Assembly: GCA_965603475.1 (NCBI GenBank)
Contig: CBFDDD010000016.1
Span: 75-64,074, forward strand
Source: an uncultured Myxococcales bacterium
Lineage (GTDB): Bacteria; Myxococcota_A; UBA9160; UBA4427
Length of the DNA stretch: 64,000 bases
Reading direction: 5' to 3'
The position numbers and the translations under genes were made by a program. Shown piece after piece: positions 1 through 27,002 of the stretch. Below the pieces are notes generated by a model. The model ran no database searches. It saw only the letters and a program-made list of their open reading frames with translations, and was not told where the DNA came from. Position 1 is the first letter of the stretch; each line of letters opens with the position of its first letter.

Positions 1-2
1 TG

Positions 3-713
3 GCCGCGATTGGCGAGCTCGCGGCGGGCATCGCGCACGAGGTGAATAATCCGATCGCCTTCATCCGCTCCGACTTCAATCTTCTTTCACGGCGACTCGA
101 GGAAATCCGCGACCAGGCGACCAAGACATCGATCCAGGCCAGTGAAATGGCGATCTTCGAACGTGTGGGTCGTCGAATCGAGATCGGTCTCGAAGGCATC
201 GAACGCGTGGCTGAAGTGGTCGGGGACGTGCGTGGCTTTGCTCACGTGGGTGGGGCGGGGCAGGGTGGCAGCGATCCGGCAGTACTCATCGAAGGGGCCA
301 TGCGTCTAGCCAGGCTGCAGCGCGGCAACGATGTCGATTTGCGAGTCAGCGAGAGCGATTGCAGTGAATGGATCGAAACTGGCCAGGAGCTGAAGCAGGT
401 GTTGCTGGCTCTCATCTTGCTTCTGGTCGAGGGCATCGAGAAGGGCGGGGCCGTCGAGGCCACACTCGAGTCCGATGGCGAATCCTTGCGGATCACGCTC
501 GCCGGACAGCGACTCCTGAAAGATGCGAAAACGACGATTCAATATTTCGAAATGCTGGCGGCGGGAGAACGGGGTACCTCCCAATCGGAATTCGGACTCG
601 CGATCGCGAAAGAGTTGATGGATCAAATGGGCGCCTCTTTCAGTTTCGCCGAGATCGGCCCCGATGCACTTTCGATTGCACTTGATCTTCCGCTCGACGC
701 AGGTGCGATCTGA
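3..713 (+). CDS. Sensor histidine kinase, 5'-truncated by window edge; intact H-box but degenerate ATP-binding domain
   Basis: Frame 3 is open from base 3. The translation AAIGELAAGIAHEVNNPIAF is a canonical HisKA H-box, and the stop is TGA 711-713. The C-terminal HATPase_c-like region lacks the N-box Asn (LLLVEGIEKG), lacks DxGxG (ITLAGQRL) and keeps only a remnant G2 (SEFGLAIA). Confidence 0.75.
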   Translation, partial: AAIGELAAGIAHEVNNPIAFIRSDFNLLSRRLEEIRDQATKTSIQASEMAIFERVGRRIEIGLEGIERVAEVVGDVRGFAHVGGAGQGGSDPAVLIEGAMRLARLQRGNDVDLRVSESDCSEWIETGQELKQVLLALILLLVEGIEKGGAVEATLESDGESLRITLAGQRLLKDAKTTIQYFEMLAAGERGTSQSEFGLAIAKELMDQMGASFSFAEIGPDALSIALDLPLDAGAI

Positions 714-2482
714 TGTTCTGGTTGCTTCTCTTGAAACTGACGAGCGCGACTGTTTCCATCGGTCTTGGTGCGGGAATACTTGCCCGAGACCATGGTTTGA
801 AAGCCAACAGGCTGATCGCGGGATTCTTGTTCTGCAATACCTGGTGGGCGACAGGAGAATTCTTCCTCTATCAACAGACCGATCCGGAAGCGGCTGCGAC
901 GATCCTGCGTCTGATGACCATTGGTTGGGTGCCTCTCGGCGTTTTCTGCATGCATGCGTCCGTGACGCTTTCGTCGATGGATGACCATCCGATCACAAGG
1001 ATGCTTCCGACGCTCTACCTGTCGATCGCCTTCATCGTACCCATTGCGATGTTCTCCGATTTCGTCATAGCCGGTGCCGCCGCCGCTGATATTGGCTGGC
1101 GACCGATCTTCAATCCAGGGATGGTCCTGACCTACGGTCTGATGGTGACGCCCGTCGTTGCGATTCTCGCGTGCTGGCGTGGCGTAATGGCACTTCCGGA
1201 GAACGGAGGGCAGCTCCTGCTCGCCCGTATCGTCTTCTTCGGGATCTCGGGTGCCCTGGTTGCGGGCACAATGACCGCAGTCATCCTTCCTTTGTTCGAG
1301 ATCACAGCGGTTGGCCTCACGACGACGCTGCTCGCCCTCGTTGGTGTGGCCGTCGCTCTGACTCTGCGTCGATTCGGACATTCCTTGATATCGCCTCAGG
1401 CCCTGGCACGAGAGATACTCGACACTCTCGAAGATGGTGTCGTGTTAGTCAGTGAGGGAGGCATTCTGCGAGATGCCAATCGCGCATTCCTTCGCATGGT
1501 GGAGGTGCGGGAGCTCTACGCCAGGGGTCGACCGATCACAGATTGGATACCCGAATTTCAGGAGCGTCGTGGATCGGCTGAGATGCCGACGTTCATGGAG
1601 GTCCGAGCGCGAGAGGGAGAGTCGATTCCGGTCGTCGTGTCTGCACCCGTAGCCCTTCACCGGGCGGGTGGACTCGTCGGACAGGCATTCCTTGTACGCG
1701 ACAGACGAGAGATCGTTTCGCTCCAGCGTCGTCTGGCCGTTTCAGCGCGGCTGGCGGCGGTCGGCGATCTTTCCAAATCGATCTCTCGCTCGATCAACGA
1801 CCCGGTCGCTCGTACCCACAAAGAACTCGAAGGGCTGGCATCGGACTGGCGTGCGATCGAGCAGATACTCGAGCTTGCCGAACTAGACGGTCCCTGCGGC
1901 GAAGCCGTCGAGGAAGGATTTGAACTCATCGAAGAATGTGTCGAGGGGGTGGACCGGATCTTCTCGATCGTGCATGACATAATTGGCTTCTCCTCGGAAT
2001 GCCCGCGCGAGAGCTTTGCACAGCACCCACTTGGTCAGATCGTGTCACGCGGGCTTCGCGTCGCAAAGGTTCAAGCTCCCGCCTGGCTCGACATCGAAGA
2101 ACGTCTCGATCCCGACGTCTGGATCGACTGCAACTCCTCTGAGATCGAACGCGTCGTCACGAATCTCGTGGTGAATGCGATTCAGGCGCTCGAGGAATCC
2201 TCCCGAGAGAATGCGCATCTGGTCATCGCGGTCGCGGCCAAGGGCGGGCGCGCGATGCTTCACGTCGAGGACGACGGCTGTGGGATCGAACCCGAAGTTC
2301 TCGATCGGGTCTTCGATCCATTCTTTACGACAAAGCCGGTGGGGAAGGGTACGGGTCTCGGGTTGGCGATCTCGTACCACATCGTGAAGGACCACGGCGG
2401 GGATATTCGAGTCTCCTCGATTCGGGGTCGCGGTACGAGCGTGACCGTTGAGCTGCCGCGAGTCATGAGCAGCGGAGACTGA
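713..2482 (+). CDS. Membrane sensor kinase-like protein: N-terminal multi-TM (7TM-type) domain, PAS-like region, His-less DHp, intact HATPase_c
   Basis: ATG 713 overlaps the upstream stop (TGATG). The N-terminal ~215 aa form a run of hydrophobic helices. The DHp segment AAVGDLSKSISRSINDPVA aligns to the neighbour's AAIGELAAGIAHEVNNPIA with Arg in place of the phospho-His. The N-box NLVVNAIQAL, G1 VEDDGCGIE, F-box FDPFFTTK and G2 GTGLGLAIS are all intact. Confidence 0.8.
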   Translation: MFWLLLLKLTSATVSIGLGAGILARDHGLKANRLIAGFLFCNTWWATGEFFLYQQTDPEAAATILRLMTIGWVPLGVFCMHASVTLSSMDDHPITRMLPTLYLSIAFIVPIAMFSDFVIAGAAAADIGWRPIFNPGMVLTYGLMVTPVVAILACWRGVMALPENGGQLLLARIVFFGISGALVAGTMTAVILPLFEITAVGLTTTLLALVGVAVALTLRRFGHSLISPQALAREILDTLEDGVVLVSEGGILRDANRAFLRMVEVRELYARGRPITDWIPEFQERRGSAEMPTFMEVRAREGESIPVVVSAPVALHRAGGLVGQAFLVRDRREIVSLQRRLAVSARLAAVGDLSKSISRSINDPVARTHKELEGLASDWRAIEQILELAELDGPCGEAVEEGFELIEECVEGVDRIFSIVHDIIGFSSECPRESFAQHPLGQIVSRGLRVAKVQAPAWLDIEERLDPDVWIDCNSSEIERVVTNLVVNAIQALEESSRENAHLVIAVAAKGGRAMLHVEDDGCGIEPEVLDRVFDPFFTTKPVGKGTGLGLAISYHIVKDHGGDIRVSSIRGRGTSVTVELPRVMSSGD

Positions 2483-2553: not shown

Positions 2554-3168
2554 ATGGAATCGATTCATTTAGGCGGCCTTCTCGTGGCGCCGATCGCCCA
2601 GCGCATTCGCAAGTGGAATCTCGACGGGAAGATCAGTGAGGACGACCTCGAATATGCGCTGACGACCGATGCCCGCGCACTCGTCGATCACTCGATGGGT
2701 TTTGTGGACTGGGCGCCGCTCGAGGACGTAGAAGCGCTCGTCGGTCTGGTCGCAGAGCAGATCGGGGGCGAGACGGGCCTCGCCGAATGGGCGCAGGATC
2801 TGGTTGAATGCTGGCAGAGCGAGGCGCCGATCAGCGATCTTATTCGCGGAGGGCGATCGTTGACGGATACCCGCGGTTTCGTCGTGAGTCAGGCGAGCGA
2901 ATTATTGGTGCGCGACGCGGACTGGGTCTACGACGGCGGTCGATCAGAGTTCAGTGTGCGCCTGCGCGGTCTGGGTCATGCGACTCCGGCGCTGAAGGTG
3001 TTGCTCGGCGCGATTCTCGCCCGACTCGCGATGGCACCAGGCGGTCGGGAGTTCGACGTGCGCTTCGACGGAATCGACGACGACGATCTTGTCGTGTTTG
3101 GCGAAGCGCTAGCCTTCGACGACCCCAATGAAGAGAGTCGGCTACATCAGGCAGCATTGATCGCCTAG
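2554..3168 (+). CDS. Hypothetical protein (about 200 aa, acidic; loosely resembles small myxobacterial-type paralogous families, unverified)
   Basis: Clean 204-aa ORF with a G-rich SD-like run just upstream of the ATG. Codon usage matches the neighbours. No motif recognised. Confidence 0.5.
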   Translation: MESIHLGGLLVAPIAQRIRKWNLDGKISEDDLEYALTTDARALVDHSMGFVDWAPLEDVEALVGLVAEQIGGETGLAEWAQDLVECWQSEAPISDLIRGGRSLTDTRGFVVSQASELLVRDADWVYDGGRSEFSVRLRGLGHATPALKVLLGAILARLAMAPGGREFDVRFDGIDDDDLVVFGEALAFDDPNEESRLHQAALIA

Positions 3169-3214: not shown

Positions 3215-5755
3215 CTATCCGCGTACGCCGATCATTCGAAGCATAGGACCTGCCGGCATTCGCGGTTCTTCCAGGACGACCTCCGCTTCGATCTGGAATT
3301 CACCTTCGCCCTCGAGGTTGAGCAGGGTTTGGACGACGTCGAAGGCGAGTTCGCTTCGCCCGTCGATCTGCGTCCAATGGCCACGACGCGCATCAGGATC
3401 GTGGCGCACTTCACCCTGCACATCGAAGAGCGATGCAAACTCCGATTCGAAACGAGCGGGATCCCAGTCGTCATTTGCGACGCAGGTCGTGGCAGCCTCG
3501 AAGTCGCGTTTCGATAGTGCTTGCATCAACTGATGCATCTCGGCTCGGATGCGAGCGTTGAAACTCTTCTGGTCCAGCCGTCGCGGTGCCCGATCCGGGA
3601 TGGGTACATCAGGGCGGGCGGGTCGCTCCTCGGGATTGACCAGATTCTCCCATTCTTCGACGAGGCTGGAATCGACCCGCGCGAGCATTGCACGGAAGAA
3701 CGCGATGATCTCGAGCACTTCATCGTTGCGAGCCGTTTCAGGAAGATTTCGAGACAGTGTCGAATGGATTTGACTGAGATATCGCAGCAGCACACCCTCC
3801 ATGCGCGAGACCTGATAGCGACGCACGTAGTCTTCGAAGGAGAGAAAGCCCTCCCAGATCTCACGAGCGATTGATTTGGGTCGGATTGAATCGTTTCCAG
3901 CCCAGGGATGATGCTCTGCAAAGATGTTGAACGTCGAATAGAGAAACTCGGCGTTCGGCTTGTCCCAGGTCACGCTCTCGAGCTTCGCCATGCGCTCCTC
4001 GTACGGAACACGTTCAGCCTTCAGTTCGGCAATCAGCTCGGATTTTCGTTGCTGAACCTGTGCATGGAGAAGCGCTCGCGGGTTTTCGAGGATCGCCTCG
4101 ACGACGGAGAGAACGTCGAGGGCATAATCCGTTGCCGCAGGATCGAGCGCGGCAACCGCGTCGACCAAGAAGAGCGATAGGGTGTGATGCAGGCCGAAAT
4201 CGCGTTGAAGATCAGCGTTAACACGAGCAACAGGACAGGTCGAGCCCTCCGGCCGTTCGATATGCACGATTCCCCCGACGCGAAGCGAGCGAAAGAGAAC
4301 GGCGGCTTCGCGGCGAAGTCTTTTCTTTCGGGTCTCTGATTCAAAACTCTGATTCGTGAGTTCTATCAGTTCGCGATAGCCGGAGCCGGGGAGCGATTGG
4401 TCTTCTCCGCGCTGGAGCAGGGCAACGATCGCGGCGTGGCTCAGGGAGAATTGCGAACGAAGGGTCTCCGGGGGTTGATGGGTGAGCTGTTCGAAAGTCT
4501 CGGCGGACCAGCTGACAAAACCGCGCGGCGGGGGTTTTTTCTTCTTTTCTTTTTTCCGTCCAGTTGTTGCGGCTCGAGCAGCGGCACGGAGGTTGTCGAT
4601 GACATGCTCGGGTGCCTGGCAGACGACGCTCCCGGCCACGTCGAAGCCGCGACGGCCTGCACGACCGGCAATCTGTTTGAAGTTTCGGACGGACAGGATC
4701 CCGACCTTCTCCCCGTCGAACTTCGAGAGTTTCGTGAAGAGCACTGTTCGGATCGGAATATTCACGCCGACGCCGAGTGTGTCGGTCCCGCAGATGACCT
4801 TGAGGAGACCTCGTTGCGCGAGCTGCTCGACGAGCAAGCGATATTTCGGAAGGATGCCGGCGTGGTGAAGCCCGATACCGAATTTCAGAAAGCGTTGAAT
4901 GTCCTTGCCGTAGGGCGAGTCGAAACGAAAGTCGCCGATGGCATCGGCAATGGCTCGCTTTTCCAGTTTGTCGGTGATCTGTCCGCTGGTAAGGCCTTGT
5001 GCTTGTTCGGCGGCGTCACGCTGTGTGAAATGGACCATGTAGATGGGCGCATGTCCGGAAGCGAGCAAAGATTCGACCGTCTCGATGGTTGGTGTCTCTC
5101 GATAGCTGTAGTCGAGGGGGACCGGGCGTTCGTCGCTGTGGATATGGGCGACCTCGCGTCCGGTTCGGTCCCGAATACTTTTTTCGATAGCCGCGGTATT
5201 CCCGAGCGTTGCCGACATCAGCAGGAAACGACTCTTCTGAAGAACGAGTAGTGGGACCTGCCACGCCCAGCCGCGGTCGCGATCCGCGAAATAGTGGAAC
5301 TCATCCATGATGACGTAGGGCGCATCCGTCTCGAGGCCCTGTCGGAGCGCCATGTTCGCAAGGATTTCGGCTGTGCAGCAGATGATCGGTGCGGCCCAGT
5401 TGATGGCAGCGTCGCCCGTGAGCATCCCGACGTTCTCCGGGCCGAACTCATTGCAGAGTGCGAAGAATTTCTCGCTCGTCAGTGCCTTGATCGGCGCCGT
5501 GTAGAAAGATCTTTTGCCTTCGCAGAGTGCCTTGAAGTGGAGTCCGAGCGCGACGAGTGATTTGCCCGAGCCCGTCGGGGTGTTGAGCACGACGTGGCGG
5601 TTCGTCATCAGTTCGAGCAGCGCTTCTTCCTGGGCCTCATACAGGGAAAGATCCGCATCGCCACACCAGCGGGTAAAACGATCGAGGATCGTGTCCGGAT
5701 CAGAGAGTCCACCCTCTGGAACCCAATCGATCAATCTTCGATGTTCTTGCTTCAT
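3215..5755 (-). CDS. Superfamily-2 DEAD/DEAH-box helicase (Ski2-like, long C-terminal DUF3516-type extension)
   Basis: Walker A LNTPTGSGKSLVA, motif II IMDEFHY, motif III MSATLGN and motif VI QIAGRAGRRG. A ~400-aa helical C-terminal region follows. Confidence 0.85.
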   Translation of the reverse strand: MKQEHRRLIDWVPEGGLSDPDTILDRFTRWCGDADLSLYEAQEEALLELMTNRHVVLNTPTGSGKSLVALGLHFKALCEGKRSFYTAPIKALTSEKFFALCNEFGPENVGMLTGDAAINWAAPIICCTAEILANMALRQGLETDAPYVIMDEFHYFADRDRGWAWQVPLLVLQKSRFLLMSATLGNTAAIEKSIRDRTGREVAHIHSDERPVPLDYSYRETPTIETVESLLASGHAPIYMVHFTQRDAAEQAQGLTSGQITDKLEKRAIADAIGDFRFDSPYGKDIQRFLKFGIGLHHAGILPKYRLLVEQLAQRGLLKVICGTDTLGVGVNIPIRTVLFTKLSKFDGEKVGILSVRNFKQIAGRAGRRGFDVAGSVVCQAPEHVIDNLRAAARAATTGRKKEKKKKPPPRGFVSWSAETFEQLTHQPPETLRSQFSLSHAAIVALLQRGEDQSLPGSGYRELIELTNQSFESETRKKRLRREAAVLFRSLRVGGIVHIERPEGSTCPVARVNADLQRDFGLHHTLSLFLVDAVAALDPAATDYALDVLSVVEAILENPRALLHAQVQQRKSELIAELKAERVPYEERMAKLESVTWDKPNAEFLYSTFNIFAEHHPWAGNDSIRPKSIAREIWEGFLSFEDYVRRYQVSRMEGVLLRYLSQIHSTLSRNLPETARNDEVLEIIAFFRAMLARVDSSLVEEWENLVNPEERPARPDVPIPDRAPRRLDQKSFNARIRAEMHQLMQALSKRDFEAATTCVANDDWDPARFESEFASLFDVQGEVRHDPDARRGHWTQIDGRSELAFDVVQTLLNLEGEGEFQIEAEVVLEEPRMPAGPMLRMIGVRG

Positions 5756-5876: not shown

Positions 5877-6665
5877 ATGAGCCGCTTCGGGCGCCGACGG
5901 GTCGGCCTTGGGTATGCTGCCTCGTTCGAGGCGAGCCGACCATGGGTTCGCGGAGGAAGTCGAGTGAAGCGAGCGGAAAAGGCGGAGCGCATCCTTCGAA
6001 TTCTCGACGACCTCTATCGCGAACCCCCGATTCCGCTCGACCACGAGGATCCCTTCACGCTACTCGTCGCCGTAGCGCTCTCGGCGCAGACCACCGACCA
6101 AAGGGTCAACCAGGTTACGCCCGGACTCTTTGCGATGGCCCGAACGCCTGCCAAAATGGCAAAATGCTCGGTTTCGCAGATTCTCGAGCAGATTCGATCC
6201 TGTGGGCTCGCGCCGGGCAAGGCGAAGAATATCAAGGCGCTCTCCGAGATTCTCGTGCGCGAACATGGCGGGATCGTTCCCGCTGACATGGAAGCGCTCG
6301 AAGCGCTGCCGGGCGTCGGCCACAAGACCGCGAGTGTCGTACTCATCCAGGCCTTCGGCGTTCCCGCCTTTCCGGTCGACACACATATCCATCGGCTTGC
6401 GGCGCGTTGGGGGCTTTCGGACGGGAAGAGCGTCGAGAAGACCGAGCGAGATCTGAAGGCGATCTTCGCGCGCGATGATTGGGCTCGTCTGCACTTGTCG
6501 ATGATCTATTTCGGTCGCGAGTACTGCCCGGCACGGGGTCATGATCTGTCGACCTGTCCGATCTGCGGTTGGGCCGCCACGAAAAAGCGCATCGCCGAGG
6601 AAATGCGCTCGGGCGGTGGTGGGCCGGTTTCGCGCAAGGCGGTTGCCCGAAGGAAGCGGCCGTAG
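5877..6665 (+). CDS. nth: Endonuclease III (bifunctional DNA glycosylase/AP lyase); start uncertain
   Basis: HhH-GPD motifs LLVAVALSAQTTDQRVN, LPGVGHKTASVVL (catalytic Lys) and VDTHIHRLAARWGL (catalytic Asp). The C-terminal cluster is CPARGHDLSTCPIC. The first ~30 aa of the ORF are basic and non-conserved-looking, so the true start may lie downstream. Confidence 0.85.
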   Translation: MSRFGRRRVGLGYAASFEASRPWVRGGSRVKRAEKAERILRILDDLYREPPIPLDHEDPFTLLVAVALSAQTTDQRVNQVTPGLFAMARTPAKMAKCSVSQILEQIRSCGLAPGKAKNIKALSEILVREHGGIVPADMEALEALPGVGHKTASVVLIQAFGVPAFPVDTHIHRLAARWGLSDGKSVEKTERDLKAIFARDDWARLHLSMIYFGREYCPARGHDLSTCPICGWAATKKRIAEEMRSGGGGPVSRKAVARRKRP

Positions 6666-23874: not shown

Positions 23875-24858
23875 ATGAGCCCCTCGAATCGCTATGCCGA
23901 TGATCGATCGATTCAGTCGAGGGATATTTCGAATTTCGTTCAGCTGCTGCGAGAATTTCTGACGGCGCATGCGGAGCTTCGCGGAATCTTCTCCGAGCAC
24001 GCGGAAGACAATATCCCCTTTGCGAAAATTCGGGCTCTGGTCGGCGACGATGATCGCGCTGTCCTGTTCCGGCTGAAACAAAAGAGCCACAAACTCTTTC
24101 GAGCCCATGGGATCGCTACGCGGGCCGTTCGGCGAGAAGCGCTCTTCGATCTTGCCGTGGGTTCGCTCTTTCACGAGGCGATGAAGCTTCGCGAGACGCT
24201 CTATCAACGCGAGGTCTACGCACCGCGGGTCGCATCACTGCGCGAAGCGGCGGACGAGGAATCGGACGAACTCTTCGATGAGTTCGATCGAATTCTAGAA
24301 AGCAGTGTGTCTCGACTGGGCGAGGTCGTCTCCGAAGTGCGAGCCCTGCTCGTTCAGACTCGAGATCAATTGCGACGTCTACTCGTCGAGCGTTCGGGGG
24401 ACAGGGTGGTCACGCGCTGTCTGCTGAGCCGCCGCGAACAGGTGGATGCCGTTTTCCCGGAGGGCTTCATGGGGGTCCTCGAGGCAATGCATGGCAACAC
24501 GGTCACGGGTCTCGTCGAAGGCGCTCGAGCGCTCCTCGAGAGCGCCTACTTCGAGGAAGCGGCCGACGCACTTCGCGAGGCGGGCCTGGATACCAATGCG
24601 CCGCGCGCCGAATTGGAACAACTCAGGCTCTACGCCAATGGTATGCAGGCCTTCCTGAACGGGGACTATGCGACGAGCATCGCAACGCTCGACGTCTGGG
24701 CCAATCTGGGCGCCCACGACCAGGAGCGGGATTTCGCGCGCCTGGCCGCGTCGGTTCTTGGTCGTCTCGGTCGACTCGTCGAAGACGACGAGGAGGGCGC
24801 CGCACTCGTGGATAGCGCCAAACAACTTCAGCTTCGACTGGAGTCAACCTCGGTGTGA
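23875..24858 (+). CDS. Hypothetical helical protein
   Basis: Consistent codon usage and a helical Leu/Glu/Arg-rich sequence. ATG 23875 is preceded by AGGAT. No motif recognised. Confidence 0.5.
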   Translation: MSPSNRYADDRSIQSRDISNFVQLLREFLTAHAELRGIFSEHAEDNIPFAKIRALVGDDDRAVLFRLKQKSHKLFRAHGIATRAVRREALFDLAVGSLFHEAMKLRETLYQREVYAPRVASLREAADEESDELFDEFDRILESSVSRLGEVVSEVRALLVQTRDQLRRLLVERSGDRVVTRCLLSRREQVDAVFPEGFMGVLEAMHGNTVTGLVEGARALLESAYFEEAADALREAGLDTNAPRAELEQLRLYANGMQAFLNGDYATSIATLDVWANLGAHDQERDFARLAASVLGRLGRLVEDDEEGAALVDSAKQLQLRLESTSV

Positions 24859-25598
24859 ACTGCTGAAGCCCCGCGAGCTCGAACGAGCAGAATCGCGCCG
24901 AAGAGAACAAGCCCAACGCCAATCCATTGCGCTTCGGAAAGATCGAGTGCGACGCGAGCATTCAGCCGCCAGTGTTCGACGACGGTGCGCCCGATGCCGT
25001 TCAGGATCAGATACTCGCCCATCAGTGAGGGGCTTTTCTTGCGTCTTTGCCACAGGTACAGGGTGACCAGGAAGAGCCAGGCGGACTCATAGATCTGGGT
25101 CGGATGGACTGCGTAGTAGACCGGCGGCAATCCCTGCGGAAACGCGATGCCCCACGGAAGATCTGTCGCGCGTCCATAGTCGTCGCCGACCAGGAGGCAG
25201 CCGATTCGCCCGATCGCCTGGCCGATCGCGAGCGAAATGGCGCAGGCATTTGCAAAGGCCACCACCGGGATCTTGTAGAATCGACAGCCGGCATAGCCCG
25301 CAAGCGCTCCGCCGATCAGCCCGCCGTAAAAAACCATGCCTGCCCGAGAAAAGAGGGAGGACCAGAATTCGGCTTCGCCACGCAATGAAAAATCGGTTGC
25401 GTAGTAGAGCTTGGCGCCGAGAACGCCGCCAAACATGATCCAGGTCAGCATGTTGGCAGCGTCGTCGGGGTCGAGACCCTCTTCGGACATCCGCGGAATC
25501 GCGATCCAATATCCGACCAGGAAAGCGACAGCCATCGCCGCACCAAAACTGCTGACCGGCCAATCTAGAAACGGAATTGTAAAGAGTTCCGGATACAT
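24828..25598 (-). CDS. lgt: Prolipoprotein diacylglyceryl transferase
   Basis: N-terminal MYPELFTIPFL, YGGLIGG and GRIGCLLVGDDYG; multi-TM. Confidence 0.9.
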   Translation of the reverse strand: MYPELFTIPFLDWPVSSFGAAMAVAFLVGYWIAIPRMSEEGLDPDDAANMLTWIMFGGVLGAKLYYATDFSLRGEAEFWSSLFSRAGMVFYGGLIGGALAGYAGCRFYKIPVVAFANACAISLAIGQAIGRIGCLLVGDDYGRATDLPWGIAFPQGLPPVYYAVHPTQIYESAWLFLVTLYLWQRRKKSPSLMGEYLILNGIGRTVVEHWRLNARVALDLSEAQWIGVGLVLFGAILLVRARGASAVHTEVDSSRS

Positions 25599-25724: not shown

Positions 25725-27002
25725 TCAGCCCTTCGGCAACCAGACGAAGAAGCGAGCTCCGGCGTCCAGATCGCTCTCGACCCAGACTCGACCCGAATGC
25801 GCCTCGACGATCTTCTTGACGATCGCGAGGCCGAGTCCGCTCGTCTGATTGCGGTTATCGGGCCTACTCGCCGTCTCGTAGGCTTCAAAGATTCGATCGC
25901 GATCTTCGAGGGGGATGCCGGGTCCGCTGTCGCTGACCGTGATTTGCCAGCCATCCGACACGGTCTCGACCCCGACGTCGATCTGGCCCTTCGTCTCCAC
26001 CTGCATGTGCTGAATGGCGTTCCCGATCAGGTTCGAAAAGAGTTGATAGAGCCGCGTTCGATCACACAGGATGGTCGGGGGATCCTCGGGCAGGTGTAGC
26101 TCGATATTTTTCTCGTCGAGCTGCGGTTTCAGTTGCGAGAGCAGTTGCTGCAGGATCGGAGCCGGGTTGACGTGAACGCGACAATGCGAGGTCTCTTCGA
26201 TTCGAGAGAGCTCGAACATGTCGTGCAGAAGTTGTTTCATGTGTCGCCCGGCCTTCTCGATTCGATCGAGAAAATGTAGACCGGCTTCGCCCAGGGCCTC
26301 GTGGTAGTCGTCGCGAAGAAGTCGGGAGAATCCGAGCAGCGAGACGAGTGGCGATCGCAAATCATGCGACACGCTTCGCACGTAGGTTTCGAGTTCTTCG
26401 TTCTTCTGTTCGAGGGATTCGTTCGTTTCGTGGCGATCCGCGACGCAGATGACGAGTTCGTTTCCGACCGAATCGCGCACGGGAAACGCGCTGACCACGA
26501 GTGGAAGGGCGGTGCCGTTCTGTCGGAGGTCGAACCGCGCACCGGAGACTCTTTTCCGGGCAACCATTTCATCGACGAACTGCTGTTTCTGGTCGGTAAA
26601 GCCTGCGACATCATTGGGCCAGATGTCGTCCAACAGGGACGAAGCAGGCCTTCCGATCGCTGTTGCCCCACCGCCGAGAACGATGCCTAGATCGTCGCTC
26701 AACCAGACCACGCGGAGTTTGGAATCAACGGCCAGTACGAACGAGTGCGGACCCGTGAGGCCATCGAGCATCGATGTGGTCGCGGCATCGGGGAGCGCAA
26801 TCTTGGCTACTTCCCGAAGGCGACCGTGCGAAACCGCCTCAACGGAATTTCGTTCTCGTTGGCCCACGACGTCGGCCCTCTCCAGATCGAAGCAATGCGG
26901 GTTGGGAAGCCCACCCGAGTGTCTAATGGCGATCCTACCAGGGAAGGAGTCGTGAGTGAAGCAAAACCGATTCGATCGAGTCTGGATTCGTGGATGGCCC
27001 AT
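25725..27002 (-). CDS. PAS-domain sensor histidine kinase (canonical); start uncertain
   Basis: H-box VSHDLRSPLVSLLGF, N-box LIGNAIQH, G1 VSDSGPGIP and G2 SGLGLAIVKKIV. Confidence 0.85.
   Translation of the reverse strand: MGHPRIQTRSNRFCFTHDSFPGRIAIRHSGGLPNPHCFDLERADVVGQRERNSVEAVSHGRLREVAKIALPDAATTSMLDGLTGPHSFVLAVDSKLRVVWLSDDLGIVLGGGATAIGRPASSLLDDIWPNDVAGFTDQKQQFVDEMVARKRVSGARFDLRQNGTALPLVVSAFPVRDSVGNELVICVADRHETNESLEQKNEELETYVRSVSHDLRSPLVSLLGFSRLLRDDYHEALGEAGLHFLDRIEKAGRHMKQLLHDMFELSRIEETSHCRVHVNPAPILQQLLSQLKPQLDEKNIELHLPEDPPTILCDRTRLYQLFSNLIGNAIQHMQVETKGQIDVGVETVSDGWQITVSDSGPGIPLEDRDRIFEAYETASRPDNRNQTSGLGLAIVKKIVEAHSGRVWVESDLDAGARFFVWLPKG

Follow-up and report, generated by a model that had tools for sequence, protein, structure and literature searches.

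Histidine kinases are normally homodimers in which each subunit carries both a phospho-acceptor His and an ATP-binding site. The DNA analyzed here is a 64,000-nt stretch from an uncultured Myxococcales bacterium (GenBank assembly GCA_965603475.1, contig CBFDDD010000016.1, positions 75–64,074; hereafter the window, on whose numbering all coordinates are given). At its left edge, two overlapping genes encode kinase-like proteins, designated P1 (upstream) and P2 (downstream), each of which holds what the other lacks: P1 has the His and a dead ATP site, and P2 has an intact ATP site and no His at the acceptor position. The question raised by this locus is whether the two proteins are parts of a single enzyme, as the first-pass annotation of the window proposed when it described a heteromeric or trans-phosphorylating kinase split across two polypeptides. 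We consider this proposal probable, and estimate at roughly 0.6 the probability that P1 and P2 form one composite hetero-oligomeric kinase in which P2 would phosphorylate P1 in trans. Support comes from the adjacency of the genes, the conservation of both defects, purifying selection, the conserved docking face of P1 and the states found in distant pairs.

Domain and motif states of P1 and P2

The 3′ part of the P1 gene (3–713, + strand) encodes the C-terminal 236 aa and the stop codon; its reading frame (frame 3) enters at the window edge and runs to the TGA at 711–713, and the N-terminus lies beyond that edge. The fragment comprises a dimerization and histidine phosphotransfer (DHp) helical hairpin (3–245) and a pseudo-catalytic domain (276–692) resembling the catalytic and ATP-binding (CA) domain of histidine kinases. 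In the AlphaFold2 (AF2) model of the fragment (predicted local distance difference test score, pLDDT, 88), helices at residues 2–41 and 46–81 form the hairpin and are followed by an α/β CA-like domain; the top PDB matches of this model were ZraS, the YF1 chimera and the kinase region of RetS. The H-box GIAHEVNNP (27–53; acceptor His codon, 36–38), which had been picked out as a textbook example, includes the phosphatase-type motif HExxN, which has been tied to phosphatase activity (PMC3591291). The fragment scored 25.6 bits against Pfam HisKA, slightly under the cut-off of 26.9.

P1 possesses the phospho-acceptor His of a class I histidine kinase but not its ATP boxes (N, G1, F and G2), although the CA fold is retained. 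Comparison with ZraS (PDB 9jfj) and canonical relatives showed that both Asn residues are replaced in the N-box equivalent (384–443; LLALILLLVEG), that ITLAGQRL stands in place of DxGxG at the G1 equivalent (492–515), that the F box (543–581) is gone and that G2 (585–617) is reduced to the relic SEFGLAIA. The HATPase_c match was merely 16.2 bits (E = 0.014; cut-off, 26.4). The absence of the N-box Asn and DxGxG and the relic state of G2 had been read correctly from the letters of the sequence.

The P2 gene (713–2482, + strand; 589 aa plus stop codon) encodes a seven-transmembrane (7TM) sensor region, a PAS domain, a DHp hairpin without the acceptor His and a CA domain, and the AF2 model (pLDDT 81) showed seven long membrane helices, a PAS fold, the DHp hairpin (residues 332–424) and the CA domain. 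The sensor region (713–1375) resembles HisKA_7TM (PF16927) weakly (17.6 bits in P2 and 12.9–18.3 bits in P1 orthologs; cut-off, 28.6), and a precomputed match to this family is on record for many relatives. The PAS domain (1394–1702) matched PAS_8 with 27.6 bits and was recovered in the AF2 secondary structure. The CA domain (2018–2461) matched HATPase_c with 90.8 bits and has an N box (2141–2191), G1 (2258–2290), F (2309–2350) and G2 (2348–2383), all intact; its closest solved structures were CckA, ZraS and KinB. The membrane sensor, the PAS-like region and the complete ATP-binding domain ascribed to this protein at the outset hold up, the sensor on the basis of the predicted helices. The nearest curated families, all matched far under their cut-offs, were the NtrB-like kinases AtoS, EspA/EspC and ZraS.

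The DHp hairpin of P2 (1706–1984) contains the sequence RLAAVGDLSKSISRSINDP (1748–1804), in which Arg359 (1787–1789) occupies the position of the acceptor His and the neighboring catalytic Glu is replaced by Ser. P2 gave no HisKA match in the Pfam search, even at E ≤ 1; the Arg substitution claimed initially held. A His nearby, in ARTHKEL, was considered as an alternative acceptor and ruled out, as this residue is Arg in most orthologs; no invariant His exists in the P2 DHp hairpin across the orthologs. P2 accordingly has the intact HATPase_c domain of a class I histidine kinase but not the acceptor His. Helix 2 of the hairpin carries a near-invariant, acidic, Cys-containing motif, EA..EG.ELI.EC.EG.DR, which is specific to this family and missing from P1; it may offer a surface for recognition of the partner or for regulation.

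The two genes meet at the sequence TGATG (711–715), where the P1 stop codon (711–713) and the P2 start codon (713–715) share a single base, the A of ATG. The position of TGATG had been given correctly, but the actual overlap is this one base and not the pentanucleotide. A Shine-Dalgarno-like AGGTG lies 9 nt 5′ of the P2 ATG, and the overlapping genes are probably translationally coupled.

P1 and P2 are also related to each other, with 26% identity over 500 aa (E = 2e-29). The full-length counterparts of P1 are 586–592 aa long and share the 7TM-PAS-DHp-CA architecture of P2, with a pseudo-CA domain; their membrane region is multi-pass, a PAS domain is present, and Pfam detects HisKA weakly and HATPase_c at most as a vestige. 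The closest of them is encoded on a 12-kb contig (L001), where the gene upstream of a P2 ortholog with 83% identity encodes a 586-aa protein whose C-terminus is approximately 80% identical to the 236-aa fragment in the window. Since the architecture is the same, P1 and P2 are ancient paralogs, and the locus is a duplicated sensor-kinase pair rather than a kinase with an accessory protein.

Conservation, linkage and distant relatives of the pair

Database searches identified approximately 87 P2-type clusters (51–95% identity) and 88 P1-type clusters (42–95%), whose source names were uncultured Myxococcota, "Deltaproteobacteria" or unclassified bacteria. Motif statistics were compiled for full-length members, i.e., 77 P1 and 78 P2 clusters at 90% identity. 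In P1, HE[VI]NNP is invariant (His, Glu, Asn, Asn and Pro in 77/77), both N-box Asn residues and DxGxG are missing from every cluster (0/77 for each), F is lost and G2 persists only as a relic. No cluster has therefore kept these ATP-binding residues. P2 shows the opposite state: both N-box Asn and DxGxG are present in all 78 clusters, F and G2 are essentially invariant, the Glu adjacent to the acceptor position is never found (0/78), and the acceptor position itself drifts (R in 39 clusters, E in 14, Q in 8, then A, T, K, D and others). The reciprocal defects first noticed in a single pair of genes are therefore conserved family-wide.

The stretch of DHp helix 1 from the His to position +16 is the face that, in known kinases, serves phosphotransfer and docks the regulator. 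Column conservation in this stretch was 0.92 in P1, against 0.62 for the whole protein, and 0.69 in P2, equal to its protein-wide value (0.69). The stem N-terminal of the His position, RLAA[VI]G[ED]L, is near-invariant in both proteins, and both hairpins are predicted to be helical and similar in length. The shared stem and the similar hairpins are compatible with a DHp heterodimer, as judged from single-chain models.

The ratio of nonsynonymous to synonymous substitution rates (dN/dS; Nei-Gojobori method) between close orthologs was 0.08–0.26 in every domain, including the pseudo-CA domain of P1 (0.18–0.21) and the His-less DHp hairpin of P2 (0.12–0.18), although these ratios are only rough because dS (approximately 0.7–2.2) is near saturation. 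Some metagenomic copies are split by frameshifts (P2 in L104, 6565–8789; P1 in L107, 1321–2989) and others, L110 and L114, are fragments only; such copies may stem from errors in sequencing or assembly, or may reflect genuine decay now and then.

Pair loci were collected from metagenome contigs using an alignment of the P2 DHp hairpin only, because a full-length P2 alignment matched generic HATPase motifs and unrelated kinases. DNA 5′ of P2 was available for 18 related loci, and in each of them (18/18) the gene immediately upstream was a P1 ortholog; the stop and start codons overlapped by 1, 4 or 7 nt. The reciprocal pattern of defects recurred in every locus that showed both genes. In addition, approximately 30 P1 and P2 clusters agree exactly in the size of their longest contig, which suggests, but does not prove, co-residence.

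Motifs could also be read in five more distant pairs, likewise overlapping (L116, L117, L118, L119 and L121). In L118 the P1-like protein has its His and a near-intact CA domain (N-box Asn, DDGHG and GRGLGL), and the acceptor position of its partner is Asn. In L116 the situation is reversed, with a degenerate CA domain in the P1-like protein and a retained His (GIAHDIREP) in the P2-like one. The remaining three combine a degenerate P1-like CA domain with Asp (L117), Arg (L119) or Ser (L121) at the P2-like acceptor position. The losses are thus mosaic, and the His of P1 and the ATPase of P2 were retained in all five pairs, as is expected if a pair needs one His and one ATP site. Judged from these extant states, either defect can apparently come first, in independent lineages.

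A sixth distant pair lies on the P0256 contig, where motifs were read for the P2-like protein and the P1-like protein is known from Pfam matches alone. P0256 belongs to a wider 7TM-PAS kinase family (P0241–P0360), in which the acceptor His is absent from 22 of the 112 members that could be scored and DxGxG is present in all. The replacements differ (Q in eight, E in four, R in three, N and S in two each, and Y, G and A), which suggests several independent His losses. All three His-less members inspected (P0256, P0350 and P0269) have an upstream partner that overlaps their start, and the two His-bearing members inspected (P0090 and P0270) are solitary. The H-box His of the upstream partner was confirmed in L119 and L121; the partner of P0256 gave a weak HisKA match only.

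Possible phosphoryl flow, rival explanations and neighboring genes

By motif analysis, the His and ATP functions lie on separate polypeptides, each without the other's. As HE[VI]NNP is invariant in P1 and no usable ATP site accompanies it, another kinase domain must charge P1, and the only invariant partner of P1 is the overlapping P2. We infer that the two proteins form a complex, that phosphate flows from P2 to P1 and that an orphan response regulator exists. P2 would bind ATP through its CA domain and transfer phosphate to the sole acceptor His, on P1. The likeliest setting is a DHp heterodimer of P1 and P2 in which a single half-site is active; in an alternative geometry, a P2 homodimer would phosphorylate a separate P1 homodimer. 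Phosphorylated P1 would then serve an unlinked regulator, of which it may also be the phosphatase, as HExxN suggests. The pseudo-CA domain of P1 and the His-less hairpin of P2 would be kept as structural or regulatory parts, and, with a separate 7TM-PAS sensor on each subunit, the complex could integrate two inputs. A more specific proposal, that P1 and P2 are an obligately asymmetric heterodimeric transmembrane kinase with two 7TM-PAS sensors and a single half-site from P2 ATP to P1 His, which arose by repeated independent reciprocal degeneration and has an unlinked or non-canonical output, is put forward tentatively, at somewhat less than even odds.

Several observations weigh against a composite kinase. 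First, a hidden Markov model (HMM) of the receiver (REC) domain found no match in the 64 kb of the window or in pair loci totaling 247 kb, whereas in a positive control of 80 generic kinase loci the same HMM detected 114 domains, distributed over 67 of the loci. The earlier statement that no response regulator lies within 25 kb can therefore be extended to the entire window, and the regulator is either unlinked or absent. Second, a His is found at the acceptor position in 4 of the 78 P2 clusters (SISH[ST]I), and these few proteins might autophosphorylate; in the neighbor-joining tree they are scattered, their His is flanked by Ser or Thr, and the Glu next to it is missing. Third, the pair evolves faster than its neighbors: identity among relatives is 41–75% for P1 and 54–83% for P2, against 82–92% for Amt. 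Finally, the dN/dS ratios were obtained at the near-saturated dS mentioned above, and the window's own P1 has its N-terminus outside the window.

Among the other explanations, the one that survives best, although we hold it to be unlikely, is that P1 is a membrane-anchored phosphotransferase or phosphatase of the Spo0B/ChpT kind, fed by an unlinked kinase or receiver, and that P2 is a non-phosphorylating modulator similar to DivL or NifL. Spo0B and ChpT have the same architecture as P1, namely a His-bearing DHp bundle and an ATP-dead CA-like domain, and the P1 model also resembles the kinase region of RetS. Also in favor are a weak match of P2 to the NifL model (58 bits), the presence of amtB-glnK beside the pair in core-clade loci and an additional canonical orphan kinase in the window. 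However, the catalytic motifs of P2 are invariant in all 78 clusters, which exceeds the need of nucleotide sensing, and the amtB-glnK neighborhood is not kept in L116, L118, L119 and L121. With no receiver domain linked, such a relay has no visible donor. The mosaic of distant pairs, in which the CA domain of P1 or the His of P2 is lost first and the P1 His and P2 CA domain never are, is predicted by shared catalysis and not by modulation.

Considerably less probable is that the GHKL domain of P2 performs other chemistry, as a Ser/Thr/Tyr protein kinase resembling the anti-sigma kinases or the mitochondrial PDK/BCK family, or by autophosphorylation of a non-canonical residue, and that P1 is independent of it. 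His-less protein kinases that resemble histidine kinases do exist, and P2 fits this description in having a full ATP site without an acceptor His. Against this, P2 keeps a full DHp hairpin whose invariant RLAAVGDL stem is common to P1 and canonical relatives, and no conserved alternative acceptor is evident at the His position, which is filled by R, E, Q, A, T, K, D or H. Such chemistry would also leave unexplained the invariant H-box of P1, which has no ATP site of its own, and the constant gene overlap.

The last explanation holds that the defects complement each other by chance, in duplicates that are decaying or in sensors that act independently. It might draw on the rapid evolution of the pair relative to neighboring housekeeping genes and on the occasional frameshifted or fragmentary copies, but is scarcely credible. 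Pseudogene decay, already rejected in the first-pass annotation, is effectively refuted: dozens of lineages, with identities as low as 42% for P1 and 51% for P2, have intact ORFs of approximately 590 aa, with low dN/dS in all domains, invariant motifs and strict adjacency.

In the core clade, the genes around the composite kinase proposed here are arranged in a conserved order: an ADH gene (forward), glnK and amtB (reverse), P1 and P2 (forward), in some loci a prpB-like lyase gene (forward), an ORF of 204 aa (forward), a DEAD/DUF3516 helicase gene (reverse) and nth (forward). The subclade of the window lacks the lyase gene. In the window, the 204-aa ORF (2554–3168, +) starts 71 nt past P2 with no terminator-like site between, and may be co-transcribed with the pair. 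Every core-clade locus has it (47–80% identity), just 3′ of either P2 or the lyase gene, but it is not found in the distant pairs and has no Pfam or NCBIfam match; considered as an output partner, it was on these last two grounds not made part of the proposal. The lyase gene, which resembles methylisocitrate lyase and phosphoenolpyruvate mutase (prpB model, 250 bits; cut-off, 354), is the gene 3′ of P2 in the majority of pair loci, the most distant ones among them (L004, 9859–10773; L116, 9647–10609; L117, 9660–10556; L118, 5085–5948; L121, 6837–7697), and may be an ancestral operon member.

The core clade and L117 have the divergently oriented amtB-glnK genes, for an ammonium transporter and a P-II protein, upstream of P1 (L001, 3975–5849; L002, 3998–5842; L117, 3435–5328), and thus outside the window. 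Their adjacency could be a nitrogen-status link or mere conserved gene order, the latter because it is not kept in four of the five distant pairs. On the other side, the locus is flanked by the helicase gene (3215–5755, −) and an endonuclease III-like HhH-GPD gene (5877–6665, +). These are 74–90% identical among relatives, far above P1 and P2, and so the kinase pair evolves comparatively fast. The second orphan sensor kinase of the window (25725–27002, −) is canonical (HisKA, 49.7 bits; HATPase_c, 100 bits) and adjoins lgt (24828–25598, −). Scans for tRNA, Rfam families, promoters and terminators yielded nothing relevant.

Comparison with known systems

Engineered mutant heterodimers have been the usual means of distinguishing cis from trans phosphorylation and of asking how a signal is carried by asymmetry between subunits; His-site and ATP-site mutants of EnvZ, for example, complement each other. 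The P1/P2 family is a natural counterpart of such heterodimers: a pair has a single His and a single ATP site, which leaves transfer between subunits as the only route of phosphorylation. It offers a clean case of complementary degeneration that makes duplicated subunits mutually dependent. Its living intermediates comprise a pair in which one partner has lost just its ATP site, pairs in which the other has lost just its His, and pairs with both losses. If the proposal is true, the family represents an evolutionary ratchet whose intermediates are still extant in sister lineages, and two distinct sensor modules acting on one catalytic site would make a simple two-input signaling device. Genome annotation labels P1 as "PAS domain protein" and P2 as either "histidine kinase" or "ATP-binding protein", names that do not convey that the two are probably halves of one enzyme. 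We found no paper on this kinase-pair family, although the search was incomplete, mostly without subscription journals, and its outcome is weak evidence.

The closest precedent is FasB/FasC of group A Streptococcus (fasBCAX), which are encoded by adjacent paralogous sensor-kinase genes and in a two-hybrid assay favored heterodimers over homodimers (PMC12675982). FasC was proposed to be a pseudokinase, with a dispensable kinase domain and His246 as the likely phosphorylation site, and catalysis was assigned to the kinase domain of FasB (PMC12675982). P1 and P2 likewise are adjacent paralogs, with a stop/start overlap in all pairs. Fas belongs to another kinase family, occurs in Firmicutes and has its regulator, FasA, in the operon, whereas no cognate regulator is found in the P1/P2 locus. 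In addition, FasB retains candidate His residues, so that cis phosphorylation is possible and the defects are not cleanly reciprocal; in P1 and P2 both defects are explicit in the motifs and conserved in more than 70 clusters each.

In Rhodobacter sphaeroides, CheA3 and CheA4 provide a second precedent: the His-bearing protein is unable to autophosphorylate, the kinase protein has no phosphorylatable domain, and only the mixture gives phospho-His, with the His-bearing partner serving also as a phosphatase (PMC3591291). According to a survey in the same paper, HATPase_c is absent from 1.7% of HisKA proteins, which nonetheless retain the phosphatase motif (PMC3591291). P1 resembles the His-bearing partner in carrying HExxN. 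The CheA proteins, however, are class II, soluble and receptor-coupled, and their missing domains are physically absent; P1 and P2 are full-length class I transmembrane sensors with degenerate copies of the lost module. By analogy with FasB/FasC and CheA3/CheA4, phosphoryl flow of the type suggested from P2 to P1 is possible.

HK1 and HK2 of Mycobacterium tuberculosis are a class I kinase split into ATP-binding and His-bearing proteins that are encoded by adjacent genes. They represent one kinase cut in two, with the regulator gene adjacent, whereas P1 and P2 are complete paralogs that have their own sensors and have degenerated reciprocally. This system (HK1/HK2-TcrA; Rv0600c/Rv0601c/Rv0602c) is listed in Table 2 of PMC8965865. 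Association of different sensor kinases through their DHp domains is known for RetS and GacS, RetS not being a conventional autokinase (PMC12189002). RetS-GacS and LovK/SkaH-type complexes are kinase heteromers like the proposed P1:P2 complex, and, as noted above, the RetS region was among the best matches of the P1 model. RetS, however, inhibits a fully competent GacS, and both also homodimerize; the relation is regulatory and not reciprocal, and the genes are not adjacent.

Spo0B and ChpT combine the His of a DHp-like four-helix bundle with a CA-like domain that no longer binds ATP. P1 shares this combination, but Spo0B and ChpT are soluble, sensorless and charged by a receiver, while P1 has 7TM and PAS regions and no linked receiver. 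What sets P1/P2 apart from these systems is the combination of full-length transmembrane class I partners, degenerate modules that remain under selection, clean reciprocity, surviving intermediates and a locus without a linked regulator.

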